A stretch of DNA of 48,943 nucleotides from Eubacteriales bacterium (GTDB taxonomy: Bacteria; Bacillota; Clostridia; Oscillospirales; QAKW01). This document shows positions 16,972-31,721 of this stretch, piece after piece. A program made the translations under genes and the position numbers. Within the stretch, counting starts at the first letter, position 1. Each line of letters starts with the position of its first letter. The notes beneath the pieces were generated by a model. That model searched no databases, was not told the DNA's origin, and worked only from the letters and a program-made list of their open reading frames with translations. The stretch spans positions 1-48,943 of the forward strand of contig JAZPZR010000123.1 of assembly GCA_045544795.1 (NCBI GenBank). Reading direction: 5' to 3'.

Positions 16972-17231
16972 ATGACAGAAAAAAGGCGCTCATGCGGGTG
17001 CAGACCTACGGCTTTGCACTTGACGAGGTATTGCTTTTCCTTGACACTCACCCGAACGACCGCGAAGCGCTTGACTATTACCATGAAACGCTTAAGCTTT
17101 ATAAAATGGCGGTAAAGGACTACGTCACAAATTACGGTCCGCTTGATTTTATGCAGGTGCAGGGCGGTAAAAACTGGACGTGGGCAACCGATATGATGCC
17201 GTGGGAGGATGAGCATAATGTGGAAATATGA
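16968..17231 (+). CDS. cotJB: spore coat protein CotJB
   Basis: 87 aa; FALDEVLLFLDTHPNDREALDYYHE is typical of CotJB. 4-nt overlap with cotJA. Confidence 0.8.
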   Translation: MNDRKKALMRVQTYGFALDEVLLFLDTHPNDREALDYYHETLKLYKMAVKDYVTNYGPLDFMQVQGGKNWTWATDMMPWEDEHNVEI

Positions 17232-17406
17232 AAAAAGACTGCAGTATCCGCTTAAAATAAAAAAGGGTGACGGCAATACTGCGAAAATAATAATGTCGCA
17301 GTTTGGCGGACCTGACGGAGAGCTTGCCGCTTCGCAGCGTTATCTTTCGCAAAGATATGCGATGCCCTACAGCGACGTAGCAACACTTTTAACTGACGTG
17401 GGCACC
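17218..17406 (+). pseudogene. cotJC: cotJC 5' segment (codons 1-63), interrupted by the integrated element
   Basis: MWKYEKRLQYPLKIK..GGPDGELAASQRYLSQRYAMP..LLTDVGT is a CotJC/Mn-catalase-family N-terminus with SD gggagga. Similarity ends at 17406, and the rest of the tracked ORF (to 17493) is antisense to the recombinase gene. Confidence 0.9.
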
Positions 17407-19046
17407 TTCGTTTCTAAAGCGGTACACTTGTATGTAGGAGCCACCGTTTTGGATACGGTGAACCTCCATTTTTCGGGCAGAATATTTAGGTAAAGGTCAA
17501 CAGTATTCTTGTCAACAATCACCATCTTATCAAGAATGCGCTTGTAGAATTCATCCTCATACTCAACGCCGTTTACAAGGTCGATGATTGCCTTTTCAAT
17601 ATCCGCAAACAACTGCTCTTGCTGAACCTTCAAGGTGTTGCCATTGGTGATACTGTCAATTTGGGTCTTGATGTCAGTCATCACTCCGTCAATCTTTTCA
17701 CGTTCTGCAAGAAACTCCCCTTTGTCAATGTTACCCTCCATATACAATTCCAAAAGCCGACTGCGCTTGCTGCTCATTTCATCCAGCTTCTTTTGAAGCT
17801 GTTTTGTACTGCTATTCAGCGATTGATCGGAAAGTACAGATTTTATGACTTTTAAAAGATTTCGGGTGATTTTCTCACGGTTGAATTTTAGGTTTTTCAC
17901 CGCAAGATACATAATGTGAATGGCTTCTTCATTGCGAATGCTTGGACTTGTACAACCCACTTCATTACCTGCTTTGTCAAGGTGTTTGCTACCGTGCTTT
18001 GCCGCCTCACCACAACGCCACGCCTTGTATCTGCTACCGTTTTGACGTGGTTTATAACGTGCAACATAACTTCTGCCACAAACTCCGCATTTGATTTTTC
18101 CCGAAAATGGATAGCGGTTAGAGTGTTTAGCTTTGCCTTCCGGCGAAAGAGCACGCCCATCTAAAATGCGATTAGCCTCCTCAAACATTTCTCTTGAAAC
18201 GATCGGCTCGTGATGGTCTCGGATGATGACAAATTCCTCCTCACCGTGATTGTACTTTTTTTCGTGAGTCAAATAATCGGGAGTGATTGTTTTCTTCTGT
18301 ACAAGGTCACCACAATATTTTTCATTGCGCAGGACTCTCAGTATTACGGTGTTACTCCATTCCTGCACCCTTAACGGTTTTATTCCTTCTTCACGGAGCT
18401 CTCTTGCAATGGTGTGAGTACCTTTTCCCTCATTGATGCACTTGTGGTATATCAAGCGCACGATTTTTGCGCCTTCTTCATTGATTGTCATTTTACCGCC
18501 CTTTACATCATAGCCTAACATATCTCGACCAAAAACGACACCATCCTCCATACGTCGCTTCTGACCCCATTTCACGCGTTCCGAAGTTCTTCGGCTTTCG
18601 TCTTGGGCAAGAGATGCCATTATGGTTAATCTCAACTCTGCATCGGGGTCACGGGTATCGAGATTATCCAGGACAAAAATCACACCTACACCGTATCTTT
18701 TCAATTCTCTTGTGAAGCTTATGCTATCAAGGGTATTACGGGCAAATCTTGAAATTTCTTTTGTGATGATCAGATCAATCTGCCCATTCTTTGCACATTC
18801 GATCATCCTTAAAAATTCCTTGCGGTGTTTGGTGCTTGTGCCCGAAACACCCTTGTCAGCAAATATCTCCGATAGCTCCCAATCGGGATGATTTTCAATG
18901 TATTCTTTGAAATACTTTTGCTGACTCTCGTACGAATTCGCTTGGTCTCTGTTGTCTGTACTAACACGGCAGTAGGCGGCTACCCGTTGTACCTTGTTTT
19001 CAAATTTTCGCTCTTGGTTTAAAAGCTCATATTTGTCTAAACTCAT
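17367..19046 (-). CDS. large serine recombinase (integrated-state isoform, 559 aa)
   Basis: Resolvase catalytic N-terminus (VAAYCRVSTDNRDQANSYESQ), recombinase domain, zinc-ribbon Cys cluster (CGVCGRSY..WRCGE) and coiled-coil. SD aaggag. The last 9 codons plus the stop lie in host cotJC DNA beyond attL. Confidence 0.92.
   Translation of the reverse strand: MSLDKYELLNQERKFENKVQRVAAYCRVSTDNRDQANSYESQQKYFKEYIENHPDWELSEIFADKGVSGTSTKHRKEFLRMIECAKNGQIDLIITKEISRFARNTLDSISFTRELKRYGVGVIFVLDNLDTRDPDAELRLTIMASLAQDESRRTSERVKWGQKRRMEDGVVFGRDMLGYDVKGGKMTINEEGAKIVRLIYHKCINEGKGTHTIARELREEGIKPLRVQEWSNTVILRVLRNEKYCGDLVQKKTITPDYLTHEKKYNHGEEEFVIIRDHHEPIVSREMFEEANRILDGRALSPEGKAKHSNRYPFSGKIKCGVCGRSYVARYKPRQNGSRYKAWRCGEAAKHGSKHLDKAGNEVGCTSPSIRNEEAIHIMYLAVKNLKFNREKITRNLLKVIKSVLSDQSLNSSTKQLQKKLDEMSSKRSRLLELYMEGNIDKGEFLAEREKIDGVMTDIKTQIDSITNGNTLKVQQEQLFADIEKAIIDLVNGVEYEDEFYKRILDKMVIVDKNTVDLYLNILPEKWRFTVSKTVAPTYKCTALETKVPTSVKSVATSL
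17398..17406. repeat. attL core (GTGGGCACC)
   Basis: Identical to 31302..31310, at the point where cotJC similarity stops. Confidence 0.85.
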
Positions 19047-19496
19047 AATAAAAACTCCTTAATGTATAATGAAAGCCGAGATGTTACTCTCGGCTGTTGT
19101 TTTCTTCTCTATATGTTTTCTCGATTCTTTCTATGCAGGTATTCATCTGTTGCGGTGAAAGCAACTTGTTTTCTTTGAGCGATATCAAAATCGCTGTAGC
19201 AATTTTCAATTCCGCTTCCGGAGTGTTCACCTCCGGAATTACGCCAAGGTCATAATTCTTGTATTTCGTGAAAACACCCCCTACTGCAAATATATGATAA
19301 GAGGCTTCTCAATATCATAATATATGCTCATAAATCAAGTTATATCGGGGGCAATATTCAATTTTCTAAATATTTGCCCGCAAATTTAAGTGAAATTTGA
19401 GAGCAATGTGGTATAACCACAAGCCGAAGGATGCTTTACACATTCTCATTCCTTCGGTAACTTCCCGACTCTTTCATCGGGAACTTTAATTGATAG

Positions 19497-19814
19497 TTAA
19501 ATTGCTTTAATCATAACGACACGGGAGCGAAGTTCCGGTGTCTGTGCACCATCTTTTACGATAAAAACAACTTTTTGACCGATCAAATCGTCATCAACGA
19601 AATTTCCTTCTTCATCAACAAAATCTGAAGCAAAATCATTGAATATAGGGTTTATGGTTGAGAACGACGTGTTGAAGATAGCATTATCTGTACGGATATC
19701 TACAGCAAAATAACCTTTATCCTCATAAAAATCGATTTTCTCAACTGTTCCGGTATATCTACCTTCTTCTAAATAGTTAGTGTATTTCTGGGGTTTAAAA
19801 TTAAATGTAGCCAT
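19497..19814 (-). CDS. hypothetical small protein (105 aa)
   Basis: Start moved to the ATG at 19814 with SD aaggagaca, 13 nt after the helicase stop. No family recognised. Confidence 0.65.
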   Translation of the reverse strand: MATFNFKPQKYTNYLEEGRYTGTVEKIDFYEDKGYFAVDIRTDNAIFNTSFSTINPIFNDFASDFVDEEGNFVDDDLIGQKVVFIVKDGAQTPELRSRVVMIKAI

Positions 19815-19827
19815 AATATGTCTCCTT

Positions 19828-21606
19828 TCAATTTTCAATAATGGCATTAGTGAATTCTTCAAACAAATCAATATCACCAAGTTCCGCTTCAATATCTCTT
19901 TGCGGTGCTTTGGTGGATTGATTTTGAATTGAGTTTTCGAGCTTGAAACAATAGCATTTCTGCCGTCCAACCTCTTTTACCAAAGTTACCCTTTTATAAA
20001 GCCTATCCGGCTCTGTTAGTAAAACATCTTGATCTTTCAGCGTTTTAAGTACGCCTTTCCAATCATTTACGCCGTAGTCTTCCATCATATCCTCAAACAC
20101 CGTTTGTGATATCTGAATTTCGCTGTACTTATACTTGGTTTTGATGGCTCCACAGCAGGATGATGGTACAACGTTGGTATCAATCATATAGCGTGAACTA
20201 TTTCGGCTGACCTCTTGACGAACAATCTCAAGCAAACGGTCTTCCGGTTTGGCTGCTGTAGTGATTTGCCTTTCTAATTTCAAAAGATAATCAGCAATAT
20301 CATCCTCGTTGATACCCATTTGAAATATGTCATTGACGTAACGTGCCGTAGTAAGTACAGTCGCAAGCTTTGAAAGAATACGCTCGGAAAGCTCTTTTTT
20401 ATCTGTACACTTATCGCAAAGATATTTTTTATCCTTTTCGTAATCATCAAAAACATCGTCGCCCTTTTGAAGCAAGTACTTTACAAAAGGTTCACCTGCG
20501 AGGGCATAATTCTCATAAATGCAAGATTTAATGTTATCACTGTTCTCCGCACTATCGGTCAAAGTATCTTTAATTTCAAATACGCGCGCCTTTATTCCAT
20601 TAGGTGTATCCGCTCCTGAAACGAGACTAAATTCTGCTGTTGAAATTACTATTCCATTAAATTCCATGACATCTTTCTGCGTGGCATCACCATTCAATCT
20701 CATTTTTGTTCGTCCGTTACAAACGCTGTACATTGTTCGGTTGAAGTCCTTAATATTACTCAACGCAACCTCATCAATAACAACCGTATGACCACCACAA
20801 CTCGAAATAAACTGGTTTAAAGCGTTCTCTGTTGCATTGTACGATATAGCACACCCACGATTCAAAATAGGGTTGGAAAATGCACTTATAGCCATTTGGG
20901 CACCAGTTGTTTTTCCCTTTGAACTTTTATTTGATAACGAAAACATTATGCTGGATATATCTTTCTTTTCATTTAAAAGAGCTACAAGAGCACCCGCAAA
21001 TCCAAGAAGCATAACTACTGTCATTGCTATACTTTTCAGTACTTCTGTTTTCACCATATTGAGCCATAATTCAAGTTCTCCGGTTGGCTTTAAATCAAGC
21101 TTTCCATCGAATTTTAATCCTTTATAAACGCCTTCGGCACTTAATGCAGAATGTCCCCTGAACAGTTTTATATCTCCATCCTTGCTCCATCCAAGTTTTG
21201 AATAAGAACGATTTATAGGGGCAATCCTTTCGCTTTTCAAAAGGTATTTCACCACTTTGTAGGCATCATCTTCAGCAAAGCGAACACCATACTTATATAG
21301 TTCCTTTACTCCAAGTTTGGTTAAAATATCGCAATCAAAAACTCTTTCGACTGCAGTCTTTCCGTCATAATATCGGATTTTTAGTTTTACTACGCCCGTA
21401 TCAGTCTCAACGAGCCTTTCTACCACCTCAATACCGGTAGCAAAAACCGTTATAGAATAATTATCATCTAATTTTGATAATTGACCAACCCAACGGTTGC
21501 CGTTAACATACGGAAAAACTGTTGTTTCACGCTTTAATCGTTCGTAATCTTCCTTGTCTATTGAGATAGTTCCCAAATGCTTTGCATCATCAATATTAAA
21601 ACTCAC
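19828..21606 (-). CDS. DUF927-like P-loop NTPase (putative SF3 replicative helicase or replication initiator)
   Basis: 592 aa; GTG start with SD aaggagg. Walker A SSKGKTTGA and Walker B HTVVIDEV. Size and layout resemble the helicase-type proteins of integrative elements. The family call is from memory. Confidence 0.7.
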   Translation of the reverse strand: MSFNIDDAKHLGTISIDKEDYERLKRETTVFPYVNGNRWVGQLSKLDDNYSITVFATGIEVVERLVETDTGVVKLKIRYYDGKTAVERVFDCDILTKLGVKELYKYGVRFAEDDAYKVVKYLLKSERIAPINRSYSKLGWSKDGDIKLFRGHSALSAEGVYKGLKFDGKLDLKPTGELELWLNMVKTEVLKSIAMTVVMLLGFAGALVALLNEKKDISSIMFSLSNKSSKGKTTGAQMAISAFSNPILNRGCAISYNATENALNQFISSCGGHTVVIDEVALSNIKDFNRTMYSVCNGRTKMRLNGDATQKDVMEFNGIVISTAEFSLVSGADTPNGIKARVFEIKDTLTDSAENSDNIKSCIYENYALAGEPFVKYLLQKGDDVFDDYEKDKKYLCDKCTDKKELSERILSKLATVLTTARYVNDIFQMGINEDDIADYLLKLERQITTAAKPEDRLLEIVRQEVSRNSSRYMIDTNVVPSSCCGAIKTKYKYSEIQISQTVFEDMMEDYGVNDWKGVLKTLKDQDVLLTEPDRLYKRVTLVKEVGRQKCYCFKLENSIQNQSTKAPQRDIEAELGDIDLFEEFTNAIIEN

Positions 21607-21678
21607 TTATAAGCCTCCTTTTCTTTATTCTCCGACGTGCTGTTACACACGCCGGAGTTATAAGTATATTTATTATTA

Positions 21679-22059
21679 TCAAAAAAATAATTCCGGATGT
21701 CGATACAGCTTTGTATAATACTTGATTTGCTCATCCGATAATGAGTAGAAGTCATCATCATCGGGAGGAGCAGAACATAAAAAGAACGTTCCGCAAACTA
21801 TATCGTAGACTTTACCATTTTCATCCCGTAATGCACGGTTTGGTGTAAGTCCAAGGTTTTTTCCCTCCTCGTTACAAATCAACGCTATAGAATCATCAAA
21901 CGGATATACGACTTGAAAATAATCGCCAACCACTTTCTGCATTGCGTCTAAAGTTTTTTCAATTTCCTTAACTCTGGGGACTTGAAAGGGTTCGATAACA
22001 AGTATTTTCATTTTGTTCTTCGTGGTTTTCTTCAGATTGTTCGTTGTTGGCATATACAT
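21679..22059 (-). CDS. DUF3846-domain protein (paralogue 1)
   Basis: 126 aa; SD aaggagg 8 nt upstream of the ATG at 22059. Clearly similar over most of its length to the ORF at 23211..23543 (shared ALICNEEGK.LGL..NRALRDE.G..YDIVCGTFFLCSAPPD). Confidence 0.75.
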   Translation of the reverse strand: MYMPTTNNLKKTTKNKMKILVIEPFQVPRVKEIEKTLDAMQKVVGDYFQVVYPFDDSIALICNEEGKNLGLTPNRALRDENGKVYDIVCGTFFLCSAPPDDDDFYSLSDEQIKYYTKLYRHPELFF

Positions 22060-22098
22060 TGTAATGCCTCCTTTTTGTTATATTTTTTCTCGTCTGCC

Positions 22099-22129
22099 AA
22101 AAGAAAAAGACCGTCCATATTGGACGGTC
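22099..22129 (-). terminator. intrinsic terminator
   Basis: Minus strand reads gaccgtcca-ata-tggacggtc followed by tttttctttt. Lies 40 nt upstream of the DUF3846 start. Confidence 0.8.
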
Positions 22130-22345
22130 GAAAGAGACTTATCGTATCTAACCCACATTATCAAGTTACCCCTCACGTGTTGTAGCAAATAGTTGTGTCC
22201 TACCTATACGGATTGGCAAAAGAATATAGCAAGGCTAAATACGGTTGTCTTCTTTCGACAGCCGAGTATGTAAGAGATGCTATATTCTCTATCATAGGGT
22301 TTTATTTAAAATCAGTTATCATTAATCATGTTCATTGTTGCATCT
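22099..22345 (-). ncRNA. candidate ~240-nt non-coding leader/sRNA (promoter to terminator, no credible ORF)
   Basis: Bounded by the promoter at 22353..22381 and the terminator at 22099..22129. An 11-bp stem (agaatatagca/tgctatattct, 22231..22290) encloses a second hairpin. Only 3- to 7-codon ORFs are present. Confidence 0.45.
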
Positions 22346-22352
22346 TGGTTAT

Positions 22353-22381
22353 ATGATAGCACGTGACGTTCAAAAAGTCAA
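22353..22381 (-). promoter_or_regulatory. candidate sigmaA promoter
   Basis: Minus strand: TTGACT, 17 nt, TATCAT. Confidence 0.5.
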
Positions 22382-22682
22382 ATGGTCGATTTTTAGGCAT
22401 TCGTCAAAATTACTAACACCTCCTGTAGCAGTCAATTAGGAAGCGGAGGGGATGATGATACTTTTTTAATGATTTTTTTCTGTTGTTTAGTATTCTGAAA
22501 AAATATTTTTTGTGCAATCTGCCATGAATTTTTCACGTTTTCTTAATCAGAAACGGGGATTTCCATCCTTTTCGGATAGTTTTCGGGGAGCTTTTGACCG
22601 CCATTTCCCTTTTCAAAAAAAGATCAACCCGAAAACCCGTTCTCCCAGAGCGTGCATTGGCACACTCCGGGGGGCTATGAAA

Positions 22683-23177
22683 TCAATCAAGTTTCAAGGG
22701 TTCTATTGTGAAATCGTGAGCAAGAGGACTAAGGGGATGGGCGTATGGCAGTCCTTTACGATCGACAAGAGTATAAAGTTTCTTTTTGTATGGTATGAGT
22801 TCGGTAAGCATTGCTGCTTTTTCATCCTGGTAGCTCGTTCCTCTACCAAAACAAACTAAAATACAATCTGCTTTTTCACACTCTTGTAAAATAATTTCTT
22901 TATTCTGCTTTGATGTTTTTTGATTATCCCCATAAATAGATGACGTAAGATTTACAATTGTCAAACTCCCAAAATCGTTTTTGACGGCTCCGTTTTTGCA
23001 CAACATCGTTGTTTGATCCATAATCAAATGATCCGCCGATGATGGAGCAGTCATAATAATTACCGCCGACTTTTTTCTATGATCCCACTCCATTTTAAGC
23101 AGAAACCTTTCGCTGTTCTTTTGATTAAAGATAGCGGTAGTGGTTATTGTAGATGTCTTTTCCACTAAATTACTCAT
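22683..23177 (-). CDS. DUF1643-domain protein
   Basis: 164 aa; ERFLLKMEWD..AVIIMTAPSSAD..DQT...SLTIVNL...HPLSP pattern typical of DUF1643. The family call is from memory. Confidence 0.7.
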   Translation of the reverse strand: MSNLVEKTSTITTTAIFNQKNSERFLLKMEWDHRKKSAVIIMTAPSSADHLIMDQTTMLCKNGAVKNDFGSLTIVNLTSSIYGDNQKTSKQNKEIILQECEKADCILVCFGRGTSYQDEKAAMLTELIPYKKKLYTLVDRKGLPYAHPLSPLAHDFTIEPLKLD

Positions 23178-23210
23178 TTTTAAAATCTCCTTTATATTTA
23201 ATCTTCTGTA

Positions 23211-23543
23211 TTACAAAAATAATTCTGGGTGTTGATACAGCTTAGTAAAATGCTCAATTTGCTCATTTGATAACGAGGAAAAGTTTTCTTCATCGGGTGG
23301 AGCAGAGCATAAAAAGAACGTTCCGCAAACAATATCATAAATTTCTCCACTTTCATCTCGTAAAGCACGATTAAGCGGAAGTCCAAGAAGTTTTCCTTCC
23401 TCATTGCAAATCAACGCTACTGAATCTTCAAAGGGATAGATCGCTTGAATATAACCGCCAACCTCTTTTTGCATTGATTCCAAAGATGACTCAATCTCTT
23501 TAACTTTGGGAGTTTGCATAGGTTTAATAACAAGTATCTTCAT
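23211..23543 (-). CDS. DUF3846-domain protein (paralogue 2)
   Basis: 110 aa; paralogue of 21679..22059. Starts 3 nt after the preceding gene. Confidence 0.75.
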   Translation of the reverse strand: MKILVIKPMQTPKVKEIESSLESMQKEVGGYIQAIYPFEDSVALICNEEGKLLGLPLNRALRDESGEIYDIVCGTFFLCSAPPDEENFSSLSNEQIEHFTKLYQHPELFL

Positions 23544-23545
23544 TT

Positions 23546-23884
23546 TTACCCCTCCATTAAATGTTCGAAATATTCCCTGCGACCAATGATATTGATCGCT
23601 CGGTCATTATCCAATACAATGCATGAATTGACAAAATTATTTCCAATATATTCTATCCACTCAAATCGGCTTTCATCAATCGGCATCGACAATCCAAATC
23701 CAAAATGATTATCCAAATCACTTTTAGAACTAATTAAATAAATCGCCCCAATGCTTTCAATCGAAGCATTGGGGCAGTATTCTTTATATTCTTCCAAAAG
23801 GTATTCTAAAAGATTTTTGATGTATGGAACGATCTCCTTTTCCGGCACTTGTTCCAAATGATCTAAACGTGTAATCTTAACCAT
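23546..23884 (-). CDS. hypothetical protein (112 aa)
   Basis: ORF tightly packed in the operon. Its ATG directly abuts the TAG of the upstream mini-ORF. No family recognised. Confidence 0.6.
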   Translation of the reverse strand: MVKITRLDHLEQVPEKEIVPYIKNLLEYLLEEYKEYCPNASIESIGAIYLISSKSDLDNHFGFGLSMPIDESRFEWIEYIGNNFVNSCIVLDNDRAINIIGRREYFEHLMEG

Positions 23885-24004
23885 CTATTTTCTTCTCCTA
23901 TTCCGTGGCGTTTTAGAACCGCAATACAATGAGATCGCCGCACTTGCTCCCATACCGAACGCTTCTAATGCCGCCTTTGATAGTCTTAAGAATAACGCTA
24001 TCAT
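23885..24004 (-). CDS. 39-aa hydrophobic peptide with an Arg/Lys tail
   Basis: MIALFLRLSKAALEAFGMGASAAISLYCGSKTPRNRRRK; SD aaggagg; ATGA overlap with the upstream mini-ORF. Below the ORF-track cut-off and hand-translated. Confidence 0.45.
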   Translation of the reverse strand: MIALFLRLSKAALEAFGMGASAAISLYCGSKTPRNRRRK

Positions 24005-24096
24005 TTTTCTTTCCTCCTTTTCGACCTTTCAAGTATTGCATCTGCTCCAATCAAAAGACCAAACACACTAAAAAATCCAATTAAGTAATATTTCAT
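24001..24096 (-). CDS. 31-aa single-TM peptide with a basic tail
   Basis: MKYYLIGFFSVFGLLIGADAILERSKRRKEK; weak SD gaaggt; translationally coupled (ATGA) to the next mini-ORF. Confidence 0.4.
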   Translation of the reverse strand: MKYYLIGFFSVFGLLIGADAILERSKRRKEK

Positions 24097-24120
24097 TTTT
24101 AAAACCTTCTTTCATTTAAG

Positions 24121-24159
24121 ATAAAAAATACACCCACTGTATTACTCAGTGGGTGTATT
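24121..24159 (-). terminator. intrinsic terminator after the collagen-like gene
   Basis: 12-bp stem atacacccactg/cagtgggtgtat followed by a T-run on the minus strand. Confidence 0.7.
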
Positions 24160-24163
24160 TTGT

Positions 24164-27100
24164 TTAACGTTTAAACTGTGGATAGTATGTATATCCACTA
24201 ACAGTTTCAGAGTTTTTCATCGTTTTAGCAATTTTAGCCGTATCTGATACAGATATGTTTGCCCAAGCGGTTGATGCTTGTATAACAAGATCAAGATTCA
24301 CTTTGACTGCACGCTTTTTCCAATCTGTTTCATTAAGGAAATCCACTTCAGTTAATCCGGCATTGTAGAATGCTTGTGTGTCTATTTGCGTTACCTTTTC
24401 GGGTATAGTGATATTTGCCAATGAGGAACATCCGTAAAACGCTTTTGCACTAATTGATGTGAGATTGTTAGAAAGTGTTACATCTGTTAACGCTTCGCAA
24501 TATGCAAAAGCACCCTGTCCCATTTCTGTTATCGAATTAGGCATAGTCACACTCTTTAAATATTTACAATTCTGAAATCCTCCTATAGCAATAGTTGTTA
24601 TTGGGATTCCGCCAAACGATTCGGGAATAACGACGTTTTCTATTATCTGCTTATAATCTGATTTGACTCCCACAGACAAAGTTCCATCACTCAAACGTGT
24701 AAAGCTTAACATTGTCACAGCGTCAGAATAATCGTTGTACGCTGGGCTGATTTTACCAAGATTGCTTTCAGTTCCATCTGTATATGTAATGATTAACTCG
24801 CCATTTACAATTTTGCTTTCTGCAATACCTCTACCATCAGCTCCGGGATCTCCTTTGTCACCCTTATCGCCTTTATCGCCTTTATCTCCCTTGTCACCTT
24901 TTTGACCTTTAATATTGCCGAGGTTAATAACAGATGTATCGGTCAAGGTAACCGAAAGATCTCCGTCTGCAGACAATGTAATGGTATCAATTCCGACTCC
25001 GTTTGTACCTTCCTTACCATTTGCACCATCTTTTCCATTGTCTCCAACCACTTTTCCTACGGTGGTTAATGTTCCATCTGAGAAACCTAATACCAGTTCA
25101 CCATCTGTGTTAATAGCGGATGACGTAACACTAACACCATCTTCACCATCAATACCGTTTGTTCCCTTGATATTTCCTAAATCAATGATCGTACCATTTG
25201 TGAGTTCAATTTTCAAAACGCCTTCCGTAATAGTGACGTTTTTAACGCCTACACCATCGGTACCGTTTGCGCCATCTTTACCGTTGGATCCATTGGCACC
25301 TACCACCTTACCTACATTTGTGCTATTACCATTGGAATAGGTGAGCACAAGTTCTCCAATTTCATTGATTTTAGAAGAAACAATGCTAATACCGTCTTGA
25401 CCGTTAATACCATCAGTCCCCTTAATATTACCTAAGTCAATAATAGAACCATTGGTCAATTCGATTTTTAAAATGCCATCAGTAATCGTTGCGGTTTTAA
25501 TACCAACGCCATCTGTGCCGTTAGTACCATTTGTTCCATTAGCACCGTCTGCGCCATCGGCTCCCACCACCTTGCCAACATTGGTACTATTGCCGTTGGA
25601 GTATGTAAAAACAAGTTCACCATTAGCGTTGATTATAGCAGAGGTTACACTAATACCATCTGTGCCATCGGCTCCTTTTACGTTGCCGAGAGTCAAAATC
25701 GTTCCATTGGAAAGCTTTACAGTCAAAATACCATCATCGGACATTTCAACAGTATCAATGCCGACACCGTCTTTGCCATCTTGACCGTCGGCACCATTTG
25801 TGCCATCAACACCGTCTTTTCCGTCCTTGCCGTTGGTACCATCTTTACCGATAATATTGCCTAAATTCAGATCATTACCGTTAGAAAACGTAAGCACTAA
25901 CTCTCCTGATGTATTGATGGTTACATCAGATATTCCTATTCCATCTTTACCATCAACACCATCGGCTCCGTCTTTACCATTTGTGCCATTAGCACCATCT
26001 TTACCATCAGTACCGTCAATACCATCCTTGCCGTCTTGACCGTCTGCACCTACAACTACACCGAGGTTTTCATTTGTGCCGTTGGAATAATAAACAATCA
26101 ATTCTCCGTTAGCATTAATTTCAGTTTTTGTAACACTAATTCCATCTTTACCATTGGTGCCATCAACGCCGTTTTCACCATCTTTTCCTACGACCACCCC
26201 AAGATTTTCAGAAGTGCCATTGGAATAGGTAATAACAAGTTCGCCGTTTTCATTGATTGTGGTATTACTTACACCAATACCATCTTTACCATCGGTTCCA
26301 TCGGCTCCGTCCTTGCCGTTAGATCCATTTATACCATCCTTACCGTTGGAACCGACAACTATTCCAAGATTTGCAGAAGTTCCGTCCGTATAGGTAATTA
26401 TAAGTTCACCGGCAGTATTGATTTCAGTTTTGGAAACACCGATGCCGTCTTCACCGTCAACACCATTTTTGCCGTCTTTGCCATCTTTGCCGTCTTGTCC
26501 GTCTGCGCCATTAGTACCATCTTTACCGTCAATACCATTGATACCATCTTTTCCATTAGTACCGTCTTTGCCTACAACAACACCAAGATTGGTAGAAGTA
26601 CCATCAGAATAGGAAATAACAAGCTCTCCGTAGGAATTGATAGTTGTACCGGAAACACCTACGCCATTTAGTCCGTCTTTACCATCCGTGCCGTCGATGC
26701 CATCCTTTCCATCTTTGCCGTTAATACCATCTTTGCCATCGGCGCCCTTGATATTTCCAAGCTTTAGAGTAGAACCATTAGTAAGGGTGATTTCCAACTC
26801 TCCGGTCGTGGTAACTACAATAGAACCAATACCGACACCATCGGCACCATCCTTACCATCTATACCATTAACTCCATCTTTACCATTAGTACCATTGATG
26901 CCATCTTTTCCATCAATACCATTGACCCCATCTTTTCCGTCCTTACCATCGGCACCGATAACGACTCCAAGATTCTCAATAGTACCATTGGAGTAGGAAA
27001 TGATAAGTTCACCTTTTTCATTGATAGTTGTATCGCTTATACTTACGCCATCTTGACCATTTGTGCCGTTGGCACCATCACTTCCAATAACAATTCCAAC

Positions 27101-28513
27101 ATTCTCGGTTTTTCCATTGGTATAAGTAATGACAAGCTCGCCGTTTGAATTGATTTCTGTTTTTGATACACCGACTCCGTCAGTTCCATTTATACCGTCT
27201 TTTCCGTCAAGTCCATCTGCTCCGTCCTGACCGTTTGCGCCATCTTTACCATCGGCTCCAATCACAACACCGAGATTTTCTATTTTATTGTCGGAATAAG
27301 TTAATACAAGTTCACCTTTAGAGTTGATTTCAGATTTAACAATACTTACGCCATCTTGTCCGTCTGCACCATCAGTACCGTCTTTACCGTCCTGACCATT
27401 CGTTCCGTTCGTACCATTGATGCCATCTTTACCGGCAGCACCAATTACATTGCCAAGGTTAGAACGTTGATTGTTTGAATATGTCAAAACAAGCTCACCG
27501 TCAGAATTGATCTCTGCGCCGATAACACTAATGCCATCTTTTCCGTTTGTGCCATCAGTTCCATTTTGACCGTCAGCACCGATTACAACGCCGAGATTCT
27601 TAATAGTGCCGTTAGAATATGTAAGTACCAATTCTCCGGAGGTATTAATCGTTGACTCAACAATGCTGATTCCATCAATACCGTTTACACCATCCTTGCC
27701 ATCGGTACCGTCAATACCATCCTTGCCGTCAGCACCATCAACACCATTTGTTCCATTTATGCCGTCTTTGCCATTTGCACCGATAACTACACCCAAATTA
27801 GCACTCTGACCATTAGAATAGGTCAACACCAATTCGCCTTTTTCATTGATTGAAGACTTTGTTACACTAACACCGTCAACACCGTTCATCCCAACAACTT
27901 TGTCAAGATTCACAGTTTTACCATCGGAGAACGACAAAATAAGTTGACCATTATCATTGATGGTTGCAGATGTAATTCCAATGCCATCCTTGCCATTGGC
28001 ACCATCTTTACCATTGGCTCCATCTTTGCCATTTGTGCCATTAGTTCCGTCTTTTCCGTTCGCACCATCGGCACCGTCTTTACCTACTGCGACACCTAAA
28101 TTAATCACAGAGTTATCAGAAAGGGTAATCAAAAGCTCCCCTTTAGATGAAAATGATGCTGTTTTAATCGTAGTTCCCACTTGCTCGTTTCTCGCTTGCA
28201 ATGAGGCGAGCCACTCTTCTTCTGTCCCACTATATCCATTTTCAACTGCAATTTCATAAGCGGATTTTCCATTCAAGGAATCAAGCCACTCCTGAACAGT
28301 TCCGGAATATCCGTGTTGAACAGCCAGCTCATATGCCGACAATCCATTTTCTACTGTTGTTGAAGCAGGTACAGAATTACCTTTGAAGAATGAAGCAATT
28401 CCAAAACCACCGCCGATAAGCAAAAGAATTATAATTACTGCAACTAACAGTATCTTTATCAAATTATTTCTCTGCTTTTGTTCTTCTTTTCTTTCCATTT
28501 CTGTATGTTCCAT
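24164..28513 (-). CDS. membrane-anchored collagen-like repeat protein with a C-terminal BspA-type leucine-rich-repeat domain
   Basis: 1449 aa. N-terminal TM helix (LIKILLVAVIIILLLIGGGFGIASFF). Two SAYE(L/I)AV..GYSGT..EWL.SL motifs as seen in tail-fibre-like proteins. About 22 alternations of a G-X-Y run (GKDGxNGxDG...) with a ~20-aa module (GELVLTYSNGxxxNLGVVxG), then GDKGDKGDK. C-terminal LRR (FQNCKYLKSVTMPNSITEMGQGAFAYCEALTDVTL...). Confidence 0.9.
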   Translation of the reverse strand: MEHTEMERKEEQKQRNNLIKILLVAVIIILLLIGGGFGIASFFKGNSVPASTTVENGLSAYELAVQHGYSGTVQEWLDSLNGKSAYEIAVENGYSGTEEEWLASLQARNEQVGTTIKTASFSSKGELLITLSDNSVINLGVAVGKDGADGANGKDGTNGTNGKDGANGKDGANGKDGIGITSATINDNGQLILSFSDGKTVNLDKVVGMNGVDGVSVTKSSINEKGELVLTYSNGQSANLGVVIGANGKDGINGTNGVDGADGKDGIDGTDGKDGVNGIDGISIVESTINTSGELVLTYSNGTIKNLGVVIGADGQNGTDGTNGKDGISVIGAEINSDGELVLTYSNNQRSNLGNVIGAAGKDGINGTNGTNGQDGKDGTDGADGQDGVSIVKSEINSKGELVLTYSDNKIENLGVVIGADGKDGANGQDGADGLDGKDGINGTDGVGVSKTEINSNGELVITYTNGKTENVGIVIGSDGANGTNGQDGVSISDTTINEKGELIISYSNGTIENLGVVIGADGKDGKDGVNGIDGKDGINGTNGKDGVNGIDGKDGADGVGIGSIVVTTTGELEITLTNGSTLKLGNIKGADGKDGINGKDGKDGIDGTDGKDGLNGVGVSGTTINSYGELVISYSDGTSTNLGVVVGKDGTNGKDGINGIDGKDGTNGADGQDGKDGKDGKNGVDGEDGIGVSKTEINTAGELIITYTDGTSANLGIVVGSNGKDGINGSNGKDGADGTDGKDGIGVSNTTINENGELVITYSNGTSENLGVVVGKDGENGVDGTNGKDGISVTKTEINANGELIVYYSNGTNENLGVVVGADGQDGKDGIDGTDGKDGANGTNGKDGADGVDGKDGIGISDVTINTSGELVLTFSNGNDLNLGNIIGKDGTNGKDGKDGVDGTNGADGQDGKDGVGIDTVEMSDDGILTVKLSNGTILTLGNVKGADGTDGISVTSAIINANGELVFTYSNGNSTNVGKVVGADGADGANGTNGTNGTDGVGIKTATITDGILKIELTNGSIIDLGNIKGTDGINGQDGISIVSSKINEIGELVLTYSNGNSTNVGKVVGANGSNGKDGANGTDGVGVKNVTITEGVLKIELTNGTIIDLGNIKGTNGIDGEDGVSVTSSAINTDGELVLGFSDGTLTTVGKVVGDNGKDGANGKEGTNGVGIDTITLSADGDLSVTLTDTSVINLGNIKGQKGDKGDKGDKGDKGDKGDPGADGRGIAESKIVNGELIITYTDGTESNLGKISPAYNDYSDAVTMLSFTRLSDGTLSVGVKSDYKQIIENVVIPESFGGIPITTIAIGGFQNCKYLKSVTMPNSITEMGQGAFAYCEALTDVTLSNNLTSISAKAFYGCSSLANITIPEKVTQIDTQAFYNAGLTEVDFLNETDWKKRAVKVNLDLVIQASTAWANISVSDTAKIAKTMKNSETVSGYTYYPQFKR

Positions 28514-28523
28514 AATTTTTACC

Positions 28524-28823
28524 TCACTTATTGTTTTGGTCTATATTCTCTTTAAGGATCTTTTTGATCCATTTTTCGGTGTAACCGTATTTTAGAGCAA
28601 GTTGCTTAACATTGTAACCGTTGTATTCTTCAATGATTTGCTTTCTTATGAATTCTCTACTGAACAAATCCACAGGGAAGAATATCTGTTGACCTCGGTA
28701 TGTAGAATGAATTTTCAACACCGCATCAATTCCAATTAAATTCGCAAGTTCACTATATGCGGAATTTAGATACTCTCCTTTAATAACCTTGGGATCCATC
28801 GACACTCGTAATTCACCTCTCAT
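28524..28823 (-). CDS. Mor-family transcriptional activator
   Basis: 99 aa; C-terminal HTH ..YNGYNVKQLALKYGYTEKWIKKIL.. typical of Mu Mor/C-like activators. Ends 10 nt upstream of the collagen-like gene. Confidence 0.7.
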   Translation of the reverse strand: MRGELRVSMDPKVIKGEYLNSAYSELANLIGIDAVLKIHSTYRGQQIFFPVDLFSREFIRKQIIEEYNGYNVKQLALKYGYTEKWIKKILKENIDQNNK

Positions 28824-28929
28824 TTTTCGACACTCCTTTCTAAATTATATTACTATTTATAGGAACTGTGTAGAGCCGCACTTCCCCGAATAGTTCCTTG
28901 TAAAATTCCATAGTTTTCCTAAAGCAAAC

Positions 28930-29037
28930 AGACGACAATCCGGTCTTTGCGCACAGAAACACGGTTGCACGCTACTAAAGCGTGCAGGTTTCGTGTTTCG
29001 ACAGTTTTAACTGTTGCGCAAAACCAAATTGTCGTCT
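28930..29037. other. 108-nt nested inverted-repeat structure (candidate origin, oriT or structured RNA)
   Basis: Perfect nested stems: agacgacaat/attgtcgtct (10 bp), tttgcgca/tgcgcaaa (8), gaaacacg/cgtgtttc (8), tgcacgct/agcgtgca (8), plus the side hairpin acagtt-tt-aactgt. Confidence 0.6.
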
Positions 29038-29058
29038 CAAATAAAAAAGCACCCGACA

Positions 29059-29087
29059 TTACCTACCGTGTGCTTCAAGATTATAAT
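29059..29087 (+). promoter_or_regulatory. candidate promoter with a conserved spacer motif (twin at 36406..36434)
   Basis: TTACCT, 17 nt, TATAAT. The spacer ccgtgtgcttcaag is identical to 36413..36426. Confidence 0.45.
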
Positions 29088-29165
29088 ATGTATTCAAGAT
29101 TTTCTATGATCCAATGTTTTTTGTTTTAAAAACCTCAATATTTTTTTGAATTTTTTCAACAAAAG

Positions 29166-29194
29166 TTGCATTTTTGCAACTTTTAATATATAAT
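29166..29194 (+). promoter_or_regulatory. near-consensus sigmaA promoter with an overlapping operator palindrome (HD operon)
   Basis: TTGCAT, 17 nt, TATAAT. The palindrome aagttgc-N6-gcaactt (29163..29182) overlaps the -35. Confidence 0.6.
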
Positions 29195-29257
29195 ACAGGT
29201 GAAATATGCTGAATTAGTTTGTCTAAGTTCTGGCAAAATCACTTGAAAGGGGAATGT

Positions 29258-30547
29258 ATGTATCAATTTAGAGATCCTATCCATGGATTTATCAATGTAT
29301 CTGATGGCGAATTAAAAATCATAAACTCTTTCCCTTTTCAAAGGTTAAGAAATATACGTCAATTAGCAACTACATATCTTGTTTATCACGGTGCAGAACA
29401 TACGAGATTTGGACATTCATTAGGAGTTATGCATCTAACCTCTCGCGTTTTTGATTCTATCACAAGGAAAGTTCCCAACCTTTTTTCTGATGATGAAAAG
29501 GAAAATGAAATTAAAATTCTTTGGTATCGTCAAATCTTGAGACTGATCGGTCTCACTCATGATCTTGGACACGCACCTTTTTCTCATGCTTCAGAAGAAT
29601 TATTTGAAGATGGAAAGAAACACGAAGATTATACTAAACAAATTATATGCGAGACTGTTGTTGCTGATCATATAAATGAGATAGGTAAAAAGTTTCAAGA
29701 ACAATATGGTCCCACATATGAAATCACACCTGAGCTCATTTGGATGATTTATGACGGAAAAGATGTAGCAAATGAAAAATTTATAATGCCGGACTTTCTT
29801 TTTTTGAAAAGCTTTATGGATGGCGAATTAGATTGCGACAAAATGGATTATCTTCTCCGTGACTCGTTGTACTGCGGTGTTACATACGGCAAATATGATT
29901 TGGATAGATTTGTTTCAACGTTAACAGCCTATAAATATAAAAAAGAAAATCGTTTGCAAATCGCCATTGAAAGAGGCGGTGTGCAAGCTTTAGAAGAATT
30001 TGTTTTAGCTCGTTATTTTATGTTTATCCAAGTCTATTTTCACAAAACAAGAAGATATCTGGATAAAGCACTTTTTAGTGCGATGCAAGCAATTCTTCCA
30101 AATAAAAAATTCCCTATTGATACAAATGAGTATTTACAATGGAATGATAACCGTATTCTTAATGAAATTGCTTCATCAGCAGCAGATGAAGTTTTATCCT
30201 TTAAAAACAGAAATATTATGACTTGCGTTTACGAGTCGCCAGCACACGCTGAAGCTTCCACAAAGTTCCTTTTAACTACGTTAAGAGAGAAATATGGAAA
30301 AAATATCTTATGTGATAATGTAGACAAAGCGGCTCATAAGCTCAGCCCCGCACTCTTATCTCGTAAAGACGATAGTGGTAAAGGCATTATGATTTACGAT
30401 GAGAAAACTGGCGATGTCACTAATATTATGGAGGAATCTATCATCTTAGGTTCTATTATAAAGCCTATTAGCATCAAAAGAGTTTATGCTGTTAAAGAAA
30501 TAGCTGACGATGTAATTGCAACAATAAAAAAACTTAGTGCAGAGTAA
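29258..30547 (+). CDS. HD-domain dNTP triphosphohydrolase-like protein (SAMHD1/EF1143/YwfO type)
   Basis: 429 aa from the ATG at 29258. FRDPIHGFI...FQRLRNIRQL....GAEHTRFGHSLGV, HDLGHAPFSH and DCDKMDYLLRDS are the hallmark motifs of this HD subfamily. Confidence 0.85.
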   Translation: MYQFRDPIHGFINVSDGELKIINSFPFQRLRNIRQLATTYLVYHGAEHTRFGHSLGVMHLTSRVFDSITRKVPNLFSDDEKENEIKILWYRQILRLIGLTHDLGHAPFSHASEELFEDGKKHEDYTKQIICETVVADHINEIGKKFQEQYGPTYEITPELIWMIYDGKDVANEKFIMPDFLFLKSFMDGELDCDKMDYLLRDSLYCGVTYGKYDLDRFVSTLTAYKYKKENRLQIAIERGGVQALEEFVLARYFMFIQVYFHKTRRYLDKALFSAMQAILPNKKFPIDTNEYLQWNDNRILNEIASSAADEVLSFKNRNIMTCVYESPAHAEASTKFLLTTLREKYGKNILCDNVDKAAHKLSPALLSRKDDSGKGIMIYDEKTGDVTNIMEESIILGSIIKPISIKRVYAVKEIADDVIATIKKLSAE

Positions 30548-30573
30548 CAATATATTATAAGGAGGTAGGAGTA

Positions 30574-31062
30574 ATGGTAAATAATAATGCTATCATCAAT
30601 ATAATTCATAAAATAACAGCAAAAAATACTGCTCCTTGCAAAAAAACTTTGCAAAAAATCGTTTTCTTAATACAAGCAAAAGGTGAAGATTTAGGTTGCG
30701 ATTATGGTATTCACTTTTTCGGTCCATATAGTGCCGATCTTGATTATGCAGTACGTGAACTAAGCGATGAAGGTGTTTTAAACACCGCATATACTTCAAT
30801 GGTACATCGTATTTCCGTCGCAGAAGAAGCAGAAATACAAGAATATCACAATGCAACAGTAGATTCTGTAGTAGACGAATTTGCAGGGGACACTCCCAGT
30901 GAGTTAGAACTCCTCGCAACCGCTCTTTATGCATATATAAGCCTAAAAGATATATCTAAAATAAAACCTACTGTTATTAAGATTAAAGGATCAAAATATT
31001 CTGAAGCTCGAATCGATTCTGCAATAAAACGATTGAAAAAAATGAATTATATATCTGCATAA
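30574..31062 (+). CDS. small partner protein, YwgA/Panacea(DUF4065)-like (tentative)
   Basis: 162 aa; strong SD aaggagg, 26 nt after the HD gene. KKTLQKIVFLIQ...FFGPYSADLDYAVRELSDEG resembles winged-helix phage-associated antitoxin-type domains. The family call is from memory. Confidence 0.55.
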   Translation: MVNNNAIINIIHKITAKNTAPCKKTLQKIVFLIQAKGEDLGCDYGIHFFGPYSADLDYAVRELSDEGVLNTAYTSMVHRISVAEEAEIQEYHNATVDSVVDEFAGDTPSELELLATALYAYISLKDISKIKPTVIKIKGSKYSEARIDSAIKRLKKMNYISA

Positions 31063-31066
31063 CTTA

Positions 31067-31098
31067 ATCCCCCGAAGTTACATACTTCGGGGGATTTT
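31067..31098 (+). terminator. intrinsic terminator of the HD operon
   Basis: atcccccgaagt-tacat-acttcgggggat followed by tttt. Confidence 0.8.
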
Positions 31099-31309
31099 AA
31101 AATGTTTCCGGTACAGATACAAAAATTCGAATCGTTTTAGCCTTTCCACGCTTTTTGACTGTGGGGTGTTCAGAGAATTCTACCTGATTTTCTACACCGT
31201 ATCGGATCACCTTGTCACGTGTCTTAATCGTATCTACAAGAAAGCCGAAAAAGCGGGGCTTGTCCGTTTTATAAATAGAATGGAACATTTCCGAGCATAA
31301 GGTGGGCAC
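31097..31309 (-). other. latent 3' coding segment: 67 codons that become the recombinase C-terminus after excision/circularisation
   Basis: Stop-free 70-codon frame that begins inside the attR core, in the same phase as the recombinase frame crosses the attL core. No SD of its own. Confidence 0.55.
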
Positions 31310-31310
31310 C
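31302..31310. repeat. attR core (GTGGGCACC)
   Basis: Identical to 17398..17406, and cotJC similarity resumes immediately after it. Confidence 0.85.
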
Positions 31311-31721
31311 GAAGAAATGGCTCATATGGAAATGGTGTGCGCCATGATTCAGATGCTGACGCGCGATCTTTCTACTACCGAGATCGAAAAGGCGGGGCTT
31401 GCACCCTACTTTGTCGACCATACGATAGGACTCTGGCCGCAGTCGTCGGGCGGACTTGACTTTTCAGCAAGATACTTTCAGTCAAAGGGCGACCCGATAA
31501 CCGACCTCACCGAAGATATGGGCGCAGAGCAAAAGGCGCGTACGACCTATGATAATATCTTAAGACTTATAGACAATCCCGACGTAAAGGATGCAATAAG
31601 ATTCCTTCGCGAGCGTGAGATAGTCCATTTTCAACGCTTCGGTGAAGCGCTTCGTAACGTGACCGAGCGTCAGGACAGTAAAAACATCTACGCGATAAAC
31701 CCCGCGTACGATAAAAAATAA
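31311..31721 (+). pseudogene. cotJC: cotJC 3' segment (136 codons plus stop)
   Basis: EEMAHMEMVCAMIQML...QSKGDPITDLTEDMGAEQKARTTYD...FLREREIVHFQRF is the CotJC/Mn-catalase-family C-terminal two thirds. In phase with 17218..17406. Confidence 0.9.

Follow-up and report, generated by a model that had tools for sequence, protein, structure and literature searches.

A probable SCC-like integrative element of a widespread recombinase family splits the spore-coat gene cotJC in gut Clostridia

The spore-coat catalase gene cotJC carried on contig JAZPZR010000123.1 of a Eubacteriales bacterium (assembly GCA_045544795.1; the whole 48,943-bp stretch was analysed and is called the window hereafter) was found to be split into two fragments separated by 13,904 bp. 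The intervening segment is very probably an integrated, non-phage mobile element resembling the staphylococcal cassette chromosome (SCC) elements, headed by a large serine recombinase (LSR) and belonging to a widespread family that uses cotJC as its chromosomal attachment site (attB). From the sequence, clean excision would restore a cotJC gene of 199 codons, identical in structure to the empty allele present in other members of the same species.

The 5' fragment of cotJC (17218..17406, plus strand) comprises codons 1-63, ends in ...LLTDVGT and follows cotJA (16750..16971, plus; Pfam CotJA PF11007, E 3e-14) and cotJB (16968..17231, plus; Pfam CotJB PF12652, E 9e-26), whereas the 3' fragment (31311..31721, plus), with codons 64-199 and the stop, starts with EEMAHME.... 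These limits were set by joining and translating the fragments, by alignment to intact relatives and by the blastn breaks described below. Once joined, 17218-17406 and 31311-31721 formed 600 nt encoding 199 codons plus a stop, free of internal stops, and the product matched Pfam Mn_catalase in a single stretch (residues 1-185, 5.6e-52). The match, together with the cotJA and cotJB genes directly upstream, was the basis for naming the gene cotJC, which in B. subtilis is part of the mother-cell specific, sigma-E dependent cotJA-cotJB-cotJC operon. No gap was needed around residues 60-70 in alignments to the solved Mn catalases 6j42 and 1jku, nor at the junction when the joined protein was aligned to 11 intact relatives (197-203 aa; up to 96% identity), among which T59, D60, G62, T63, E64, E65, H68 and E70 were invariant. 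Two intact 199-aa metagenome proteins, P0001 and P0002, were 96% and 91% identical to the joined CotJC. Both junctions carry the same 9-mer, GTGGGCACC, of which exactly two copies were found in the window, one at the left junction (attL core, 17398..17406) and one at the right (attR core, 31302..31310). Between them the G+C content falls to 38.5%, compared with 47% in either flank, and the first gene of the insert, a 559-aa LSR open reading frame (ORF), runs antisense across the left junction. The initial annotation, made from the letters of the window, had proposed that the CotJC-like frame behind cotJA and cotJB stops at 17406 and resumes in phase at 31311, that the joined ORF is uninterrupted and its junction fits a conserved Mn-catalase motif, and that identical 9-mers enclose an AT-richer, 13,904-bp insert opening with an antisense LSR; profile searches, alignments and counts bore out each of these proposals, and the comparison with the Mn-catalase profile that it had suggested gave the one-piece, gap-free match reported above.

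Empty alleles of the same gene were found within the species. The CotJB protein of the window recurred unchanged on at least 23 other contigs of the same species, and ten contigs with an identical CotJB (L086-L095), whose DNA is about 97% identical to the flanks of the window, were fetched. All ten aligned by blastn to the window up to 17405/17406, resumed at 31302 and carried the site at the Gly62 codon in its empty form, GACGTGGGCACCGAAGAAATGG. Two of them, L091 and L095, retain a complete cotJC for a 199-aa protein, and in L091 the sequence across the site (...AACTGACGTGGGCACCGAAGAAATGGC...) leads to the same LacI-type and major facilitator superfamily genes that occupy 31824-34130 in the window. 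Identical break points were obtained with L001, from a related species sharing 82% nucleotide identity. Since the conspecific empty alleles share the exact break points, the insertion is real, precise, conservative and not fixed in the species. The search for the empty site in related genomes that had been suggested at the outset was therefore successful; the accompanying claim that the germline copy of the element is never lost was not in keeping with the data, as all ten conspecific contigs are without this element and near-identical recombinases reside in very different hosts.

Other positions of cotJC were also found to be occupied. In six of the conspecific contigs (L086, L087, L090, L092, L093 and L094) the Gly62 site is empty and a different element sits at a second position, corresponding to 31648 in the window (codon ~176, after ..HFQRFGE), with a resulting product of 229 aa; on this second element lie the gene of a separate serine recombinase of 506 aa (L086 8208-9728, minus) and a resolvase fragment of 125 aa. 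Counting both elements, an interrupted cotJC is thus present in the window and in 6 of the 10 conspecific contigs; two of the ten break off inside cotJC and could not be scored. The CotJC reconstructed from L037 breaks at the same ..QRFGE motif, and in L007, whose host carries the element most closely related to that of the window, the cotJC 3' fragment (512-739) is itself broken after ..EDMAA (codon ~135), which may mark a third insertion site, in the conserved motif AAEQKAR. Different elements have entered cotJC, and they use more than one of its conserved motifs.

The recombinase of the window belongs to a large family that shares its target. A scan restricted to one genome per species returned 79 loci, with LSR identities of 44-97%, in Acutalibacteraceae, Oscillospiraceae, Ruminococcaceae, Lachnospiraceae and other hosts; carriers among isolates included Yeguia hominis NSJ-40 (L016), Dysosmobacter segnis BX15 (L063), Flintibacter faecis BX5 (L064), Oscillibacter valericigenes An907 and Clostridiaceae bacterium 1XD21-29 (L036). 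In 63 of the 76 loci that were informative downstream, an antisense cotJC 5' fragment, usually followed by cotJB and cotJA, began at most 400 bp from the 3' end of the LSR; a few further loci had the fragment farther from the LSR. All the junctions of the family fell inside the codons for T-D-[IV]-G-T. Both cotJC fragments could be recovered in 17 loci, whose elements measure 3.7-12.4 kb, and when these were compared with the window, the first two bases of the Gly62 codon, GG, were present at all 36 junctions and were the only identity common to attL and attR in every case. In four loci (L018, L006, L028 and L049) attL and attR share essentially GG alone, as is characteristic of large serine recombinases with their 2-bp crossover. 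We thus infer that crossover takes place at this dinucleotide, that is, at 17401-17402 in attL and 31305-31306 in attR of the window. The codons 59-63 of many hosts contain ACC GAT ATC GGT (T-D-I-G), a perfect 12-bp palindrome, and it accounts for the strange 'TDIG' ends of some proteins called as recombinases, because the antisense of these palindromic host codons reads G-T-D-I-G.

The attachment site of the element (attP) could be reconstructed from the two junctions. That of the window reads ...CATAAGGTG GG CACCTTCG..., an imperfect palindrome with symmetry at 15 of 28 positions versus 9 of 28 for attB, in line with the non-palindromic 2-bp crossover, the imperfect inverted repeats and the more symmetric attP of LSR attachment-site pairs; the attP of the clade at 65-69% identity is a near-perfect palindrome, CATTTCCGATGCTTCTCTG GG TAGAGAAGCCTCTGAAATG. 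The only contig in attP form that emerged from the metagenome scan, L085, belongs to a sister clade (LSR 62% identical) and has this very attP. Its LSR ORF runs straight through the palindrome GAACATTTCAGAGGCTTCTCTA CC CAGAGAAGCATCGGAAATGTTC and no cotJC lies nearby; with an intact attP inside the LSR ORF and cotJC absent from the vicinity, L085 represents an unintegrated or excised copy.

Some family loci depart from the usual layout. In L020, L030, L034, L040, L042 and L075 the recombinase is followed by cotJC codons ~29-67 only, with no cotJB, and the same holds for the IMG/VR loci L097, L098, L100, L102, L104 and L107; a second, unrelated serine recombinase on the opposite strand often accompanies these partial genes. 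To judge from these sequences, it looks as if an attL with its piece of cotJC travels inside larger composite elements. The orientation is reversed in L035 and L084, in which the recombinase ORF enters the 3' part of cotJC in frame (..NISGAS|VGTEELNHLEM..), and this opposite orientation gives rise to proteins called as 'recombinase-Mn catalase fusion' (P0212, P0216 and P0240; 688-698 aa). Other called proteins, such as P0165 and P0185 (604-655 aa), are recombinase ORFs that continue through antisense cotJC.

The distribution of the family pointed to recent horizontal movement. Recombinases 99-100% identical to each other (for instance L009/L011/L012 and L016/L017/L056) were found in hosts whose CotJB proteins are just 30-47% identical, and the window itself shares 97% identity with L007 in the LSR and 43% in CotJB; elements with LSRs 94-97% identical to that of the window are present in other species. 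Such near-identical LSRs in hosts with strongly diverged CotJB indicate that the family is actively mobile. The reconstructed split cotJC is full length in 11 of 13 loci, an observation that had been considered as evidence of selection on the gene and was dropped, given that transfer is too recent. The element thus behaves as an accessory, horizontally moving one, unlike the old, domesticated skin of B. subtilis.

Its gene content is best described, from the sequence, as that of an SCC-like integrative element. The LSR (17367..19046, minus; Pfam Resolvase, Recombinase and Zn_ribbon_recom) is full length in its integrated form, with the catalytic-serine motif YCRVSTD, and its best NCBIfam matches are CcrB (127 bits) and CcrC (121 bits), far from the cut-off of 900, along with XisF-like recombinases, so that the LSR shares their superfamily without being an equivalog. 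A Cch-like replicative helicase (19828..21606, minus) is recognised by Pfam DUF927 (6e-31) and HTH_56 (1e-15) and by NCBIfam SCCmet_Cch1 (1.5e-69; 235 bits, with a cut-off of 700). The remaining backbone consists of a 105-aa ORF downstream of the helicase gene (19497..19814, minus), which has a 105-aa counterpart at the equivalent position in L096, an SCC-type DUF1643 protein (22683..23177, minus; PF07799, 7e-22) also kept in L096, and two DUF3846 proteins (21679..22059, minus, PF12957, 1e-36; 23211..23543, minus, PF12957, 1e-39), and beyond it lies a 112-aa ORF (23546..23884, minus) of the ORF list. Every backbone gene is open. Of the gene types in the insert, only DUF3846 is known to be frequent on conjugative elements. 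The two paralogues bracket the DUF1643 gene and show ~72-82% nucleotide identity to each other's counterparts in L007, an arrangement that resembles a duplicated backbone segment. Neither the 105-aa and 112-aa ORFs nor the attR ORF described below gave a significant family in Pfam, PHROGs or NCBIfam.

The rest of the insert differs between related elements. A Mor-family transcription activator gene (28524..28823, minus; Pfam Mor 7e-13, PHROG 'late transcriptional activator'), placed immediately ahead of the largest gene, lies in a region common to L007, and both L007 (LSR 97%, different host) and L096 (LSR 94.6%, sister species) share with the window the backbone from LSR to DUF3846, the Mor region and the attR end. 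L096 combines this backbone, at the same site, with other cargo. The largest gene (24164..28513, minus) encodes a 1449-aa collagen-like/BspA-type leucine-rich repeat (LRR) protein (Pfam Collagen 1e-46, LRR_5 7e-25), with a hydrophobic N-terminus that, read by eye, is a putative membrane anchor, ~20 collagen-like G-x-x blocks in alternation with beta-like modules of ~30 aa, and an LRR domain at the C-terminus. The gene contains tandem repeats of 9/18/27 nt and is missing from the related elements of L007 and L096. Collagen-like proteins form spore surface hairs in some Firmicutes, and we found no evidence tying the 1449-aa protein to spores. Near the right end, an HD-domain protein that is weakly dGTPase-like (29219..30547, plus; Pfam HD and HD_assoc_2, PADLOC dGTPase 3e-10) precedes a 162-aa protein resembling the C-terminal part of DarG (30574..31062, plus; NCBIfam antitoxin_DarG 1.4e-8, far below the cut-off, and PADLOC DarG 1e-10); this pair (29219-31062) may be a defence or toxin-antitoxin-like cargo, with weak scores. 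Comparison among the elements thus presents the collagen/LRR gene and the HD/DarG-like pair as replaceable cargo.

A prophage was ruled out: the PHROGs and Pfam scans of the insert (Pfam and NCBIfam in the case of the collagen/LRR and helicase genes) detected no phage structural, packaging or lysis genes and returned just the Mor-like activator and families of unknown function, and the best matches of the LSR among 50,697 phage records stayed below 50% identity. One record deposited as 'Bacteriophage sp.' (MT839280.1) is actually a chromosomal LSR/cotJC'/cotJB/cotJA fragment. Rfam and tRNA scans of the window were empty, hence the insert is not a tRNA-targeting island. Outside the element, a WYL gene (35159-36148) shows 78% DNA identity to a WYL gene located inside the cotJC element of L096 (557-1721), and the region at 34-37.8 kb that contains it together with an Exo_endo_phos gene (G+C 0.35 at 34000-35000) possibly represents cargo that was exchanged or the remains of a further mobile element.

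Integration appears to cut the recombinase gene itself. In the integrated form the last 10-11 codons of the LSR and its stop are host DNA, antisense to cotJC, with the junction at residue 548.7. When the element was circularised in silico, the LSR frame entered a segment at the opposite end of the insert (31097..31309, minus), which contributes 68 codons and a stop to a predicted excised-form LSR of 617 aa. The same operation lengthened the LSRs of L007 (from 565 to 617 aa), L006 (from 568 to 617) and L018 (from 583 to 623), and the added C-terminal peptides are homologous among these loci (..SEMF..K.DK..F.G..). Comparison of this segment between the window and L007 gave 16 synonymous and 6 non-synonymous differences in the LSR frame, versus 1/21 and 1/22 in the other frames, and this frame-specific excess of synonymous changes indicates that the segment is coding and under purifying selection. 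We found 73 homologs of the segment, all of them matching at the C-terminal end of short called proteins. The read-through form of the LSR was directly seen in L085, of the sister clade. The comparison suggests that in the clade of the window, too, attP lies inside the LSR gene, and integration would then remove 68 C-terminal codons, leaving an integrated enzyme of 559 aa with a host-encoded tail in place of the 617-aa form of the circle. An AlphaFold2 model of the latter, computed with no alignment, had a mean predicted local distance difference test score (pLDDT) of 36 and was unusable.

A conserved small ORF of 48 aa lies directly upstream of the LSR (19084..19230, minus) and is a candidate recombination directionality factor (RDF) or regulator. 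Homologues of 45-75 aa, with the core ..ILLSLEKRKLLT..QRE.C..LEKQ.., occupy the equivalent position in most related loci. Between it and the LSR gene, a conserved, terminator-like stem-loop (19074..19095, minus; -14.3 kcal/mol, z -4.0) has equivalents in L004, L024 and L017, and in the clade at 65-69% identity the stem-loop is a proper terminator followed by TCGACA-17-TATAAT, a near-consensus sigma-A type promoter, before the LSR. Upstream of the small ORF, a promoter-like site, ATATT-N14-CATATATT (19289..19315, minus), ends 9 nt before its ribosome-binding-site-like AGGGGGTG and recurs at the equivalent position in L007 and L024. The pattern ATATTN{13,15}CATAYAHT matched only once in the 48.9-kb window, with 0.05 matches expected, and the resemblance of the site to sigma-E promoters is a hint only. 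A possible SpoIIID box (KRTAACARK, PMC5025042) was dropped after reading by eye gave a match at just 7 of 9 positions. Within 19231-19262, just after AGGGGGTG, the window and L007 differ by 1 nt from L004 and L024; as this difference puts an upstream GTG start out of frame, the small ORF has 48 aa instead of ~65. Two inverted repeats located upstream of the promoter-like site (~19385-19400 and ~19345-19375, minus; TGTGGTTATACCACA and GGGCAAATATT..AATATTGCCC) are both conserved in L007, L004 and L024 and may serve as operators or, alternatively, as terminator of the gene upstream.

These data suggest how the element may move. It entered by conservative recombination of the LSR type between attP and the cotJC codons for T-D-V-G-T-E-E, with no bases gained or lost; it would leave by the combined action of the LSR and a directionality factor, with the product of the small upstream ORF as candidate, and the excised circle may then be replicated by the Cch helicase, as has been proposed for SCC elements. 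Whether excision is also a step of sporulation, rebuilding cotJC in the mother cell, is a question on which our confidence stops somewhat short of even.

A contig chimera joining cotJC to unrelated DNA has a negligible probability: the window is an apparent metagenome-type contig of 48,943 bp, yet its two junctions share one 9-mer and keep one codon phase, and the architecture recurs in more than 60 independent assemblies, isolate genomes included. It is also very improbable that the element has lost its mobility and survives in this genome as a relic, with cotJC as a pseudogene. The N-terminal shortening of the small ORF relative to L004 and L024 and the missing attP form of this clade would agree with such decay, but the LSR is full length with its YCRVSTD motif, the backbone genes are all open, the cotJC halves are intact with the structure of the empty allele, elements 94-97% identical occur in other species and the attR segment is under purifying selection. 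The two readings that deserve most attention differ in what happens to cotJC at sporulation. According to one, cotJC is merely a safe harbour, a conserved and vegetatively silent attB for a broad-host-range family, excision being tied to transfer, replication or stress and not to development, so that the spores of carriers lack this CotJC. No part of the protein is more conserved than the stretch that contains the site (T59, D60, G62, T63, E64, E65 and H68 are invariant), which would provide a wide host range, and the extreme horizontal spread, the apparently ordinary accessory or defence character of the cargo and the insertion of other elements in other conserved cotJC motifs (..QRFGE in L086, five other conspecific contigs and L037; ..EDMAA in L007) are in keeping with it, as is the reported dispensability of CotJC paralogues in C. 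difficile (PMC11222575). On the other side, this reading leaves unexplained both the separately transcribed small ORF and the developmental excision of all the tested analogues in sporulation genes, and the observations made here fit a developmental reading equally. We regard the safe harbour as a serious possibility that falls slightly short of probable.

The other reading, a developmental switch in the manner of skin and gin, would have the LSR and a small RDF, expressed from a sigma-E or sigma-K promoter, excise the element in the mother cell, so that intact cotJC exists only in the terminal cell and the forespore keeps the element; such a switch is compatible with mobility, since SPbeta shows both. 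We consider it quite conceivable, with a likelihood approaching but not reaching one half. The target is the third gene of the cotJA-cotJB-cotJC operon, the antisense recombinase adjoins the 5' fragment as in skin and yin, a conserved small ORF precedes the LSR, and the lone sigma-E-like match of the window falls exactly upstream of it. In C. difficile skin the recombinase is constitutive and the small RDF is controlled by sigma-E, a division of labour mirrored by the terminator and separate sigma-A-type LSR promoter of the clade at 65-69% identity (PMC5025042). The split gene is intact in 11 of the 13 reconstructed cases, and its interruption in the window and in 6 of the 10 conspecific contigs means that there is no strong selection against disruption, which is what one would expect of a disruption undone whenever the gene is required. 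Moreover, all the LSR elements in mother-cell sporulation genes tested so far excise during sporulation (PMC5595907, PMC4191935, PMC5025042). Nevertheless, the sigma factor that the promoter-like site would serve is ambiguous, and the B. subtilis consensus used fails to recognise the host's own cotJ promoter; transfer is so recent that intact gene halves are uninformative about selection. In C. difficile the coat reportedly forms without need of CotJC-type catalases (PMC11222575), and there may therefore be no pressure to rebuild cotJC.

Taken jointly, the observations raise the possibility, which we consider rather unlikely as a whole, that cotJC is the attachment gene of a horizontally spreading, sporulation-excised, state-sensing switch. 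An SCC-like family would enter the same cotJC codon in many gut Clostridia; excision in the mother cell would be commanded by a sporulation sigma factor, with the small upstream protein as RDF; and the state of the element would be sensed through the position of attP in the LSR gene, the 617-aa form of the circle being competent for integration and the integrated 559-aa form, with its host tail, having a different directionality.

Several observations weigh against the main reading, that of a mobile, LSR-integrated element, or against parts of it. Neither an attP-form nor a circular copy of the window's clade was found, a pattern scan of viral_contigs giving 0 hits. Conjugation or mobilisation genes were not identified among the element ORFs scanned with Pfam, NCBIfam and PHROGs (no relaxase, origin of transfer, coupling protein or type IV secretion system). 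The small ORF has no detectable family in Pfam, PHROGs or NCBIfam, its role as an RDF being that of a candidate only. The promoter-like DNA upstream of it also scores 9/12 as a sigma-70 type promoter, a sigma-A fit equal to that of sigma-E, and the sigma-E pattern, which follows the B. subtilis consensus, had been relaxed at one position after the sequence was seen. Regarding the split recombinase, a phmmer search of 1.84 billion representatives with the 70-aa attR ORF returned short proteins only, and no protein covered both sides of a junction-spanning 123-aa query. The LSRs of L034, L046, L078, L058 and L061 stop 24-107 nt before the junction, the in-frame continuation follows in part from the geometry of the attP palindrome, and the 68-codon segment could be a separate 63-aa gene instead of the C-terminus of the LSR.

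The cotJC element was compared with known systems, among them the sporulation-gene intervening elements and SCC. A parallel in layout is skin, in sigK (recombinase SpoIVCA in B. subtilis; CD1231, with the RDF CD1234, in C. difficile): in both cases an LSR element lies within the coding region of a sporulation gene, the recombinase is antisense and adjoins the 5' fragment, the common core is short, excision restores the frame, a small acidic protein is a possible directionality factor and, in the sister clade, the LSR appears to have its own sigma-A-type promoter, as CD1231 does (PMC5025042). In contrast to skin, a long-resident defective prophage that interrupts a sigma factor gene, the cotJC element hits a coat catalase, lacks phage-derived genes, appears to have its attP inside the recombinase gene, is polymorphic within the species and crosses families. 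The recently described clostridial element yin, in yabG, likewise has an antisense recombinase next to the 5' gene fragment. The experimental precedent among non-phage intervening elements is gin, in gerE of B. cereus ATCC 10987 (GirC and GirX; PMC5595907), which likewise encodes serine recombinases and interrupts a small gene expressed in the mother cell, and which its own authors compare with SCC elements; gin, however, is 28.6 kb long, has three recombinases and is proven to excise developmentally, whereas the cotJC element has a single LSR and a Cch module and is known from its sequence. SPbeta, in spsM (SprA/SprB; PMC4191935, PMC5499854), is both horizontally active and developmentally excised and combines an LSR with a small RDF, for which the cotJC element has only a candidate, but it is a 134-kb functional phage, and virion genes are lacking here. 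The initial annotation had described the architecture as skin/SPbeta-style: the antisense recombinase beside the 5' fragment does match skin and gin, whereas the likeness to SPbeta did not hold, the element being free of phage structural genes and having an SCC-like backbone.

The SCC/SCCmec elements share with the insert an LSR, for which CcrB and CcrC are the best NCBIfam hits of the insert, a Cch-type DUF927/HTH_56 helicase, DUF1643, variable cargo and a conserved housekeeping-type target, and differ from it in that its scores are far below the equivalog cut-offs, it has a single recombinase instead of a ccrAB pair, its hosts are Clostridia and its target is codon 62 of cotJC and not the 3' end of rlmH (orfX). 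An attP inside a gene has a parallel in mycobacteriophages such as BPs, in which integration truncates the product (integration-dependent immunity). There, as predicted here, the attachment site lies in a coding sequence and the integrated and excised forms differ in their C-termini, but the gene split in BPs is that of the repressor and its integrase is a tyrosine recombinase, whereas the cotJC element would split the serine recombinase itself.

As for the target, the initial annotation had presented cotJC as new, which was not upheld. A skin-like element interrupting cotJC of Laceyella sacchari has been reported in silico (Galperin et al. 2022, bioRxiv 10.1101/2022.02.25.481979), and cotJC is listed with gerE, yaaH and yhbH among the frequent integration targets of phages and transposons by Abe et al. 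2013, as cited by Kohm et al. (bioRxiv 10.1101/2021.11.22.469490). The Laceyella element shares with ours the target gene, the general idea and the in-silico nature of the evidence; its host is of the Bacillus class, and the accessible text of that report does not mention a Clostridia-wide family, the GG crossover or a split recombinase gene. Our search of the literature yielded neither an experimentally studied cotJC insertion nor an account of the Clostridia-wide family. Beyond what had been annotated before, the sequences suggest that the recombinase gene is split by integration and show different elements in more than one conserved motif of cotJC.

Intervening elements of sporulation genes are well established but sparsely sampled, almost only in Bacillus and C. 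difficile. The window and ~70 related loci add a large, actively exchanged recombinase family of gut Clostridia with one common landing codon in cotJC. With attB, attP, attL and attR all readable from sequence, the family is a natural set of orthogonal LSR/att-site pairs, as well as a testable case of a recombinase gene cut by its own integration. It also bears on annotation, since in many metagenome-assembled genomes cotJC will be annotated wrongly, as a pseudogene or a pair of fragments, and the recombinase likewise, as fusion proteins (e.g. P0212, P0165). The presence in one species of alleles that are empty, occupied at the first site or occupied at the second offers a straightforward way to assay whether excision during development is general or confined to the few domesticated elements examined to date. 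If the joint reading were true, the coat catalase gene cotJC would be, counting the two further motifs, a major hub, hitherto unmapped, for the mobile DNA of the gut microbiome.

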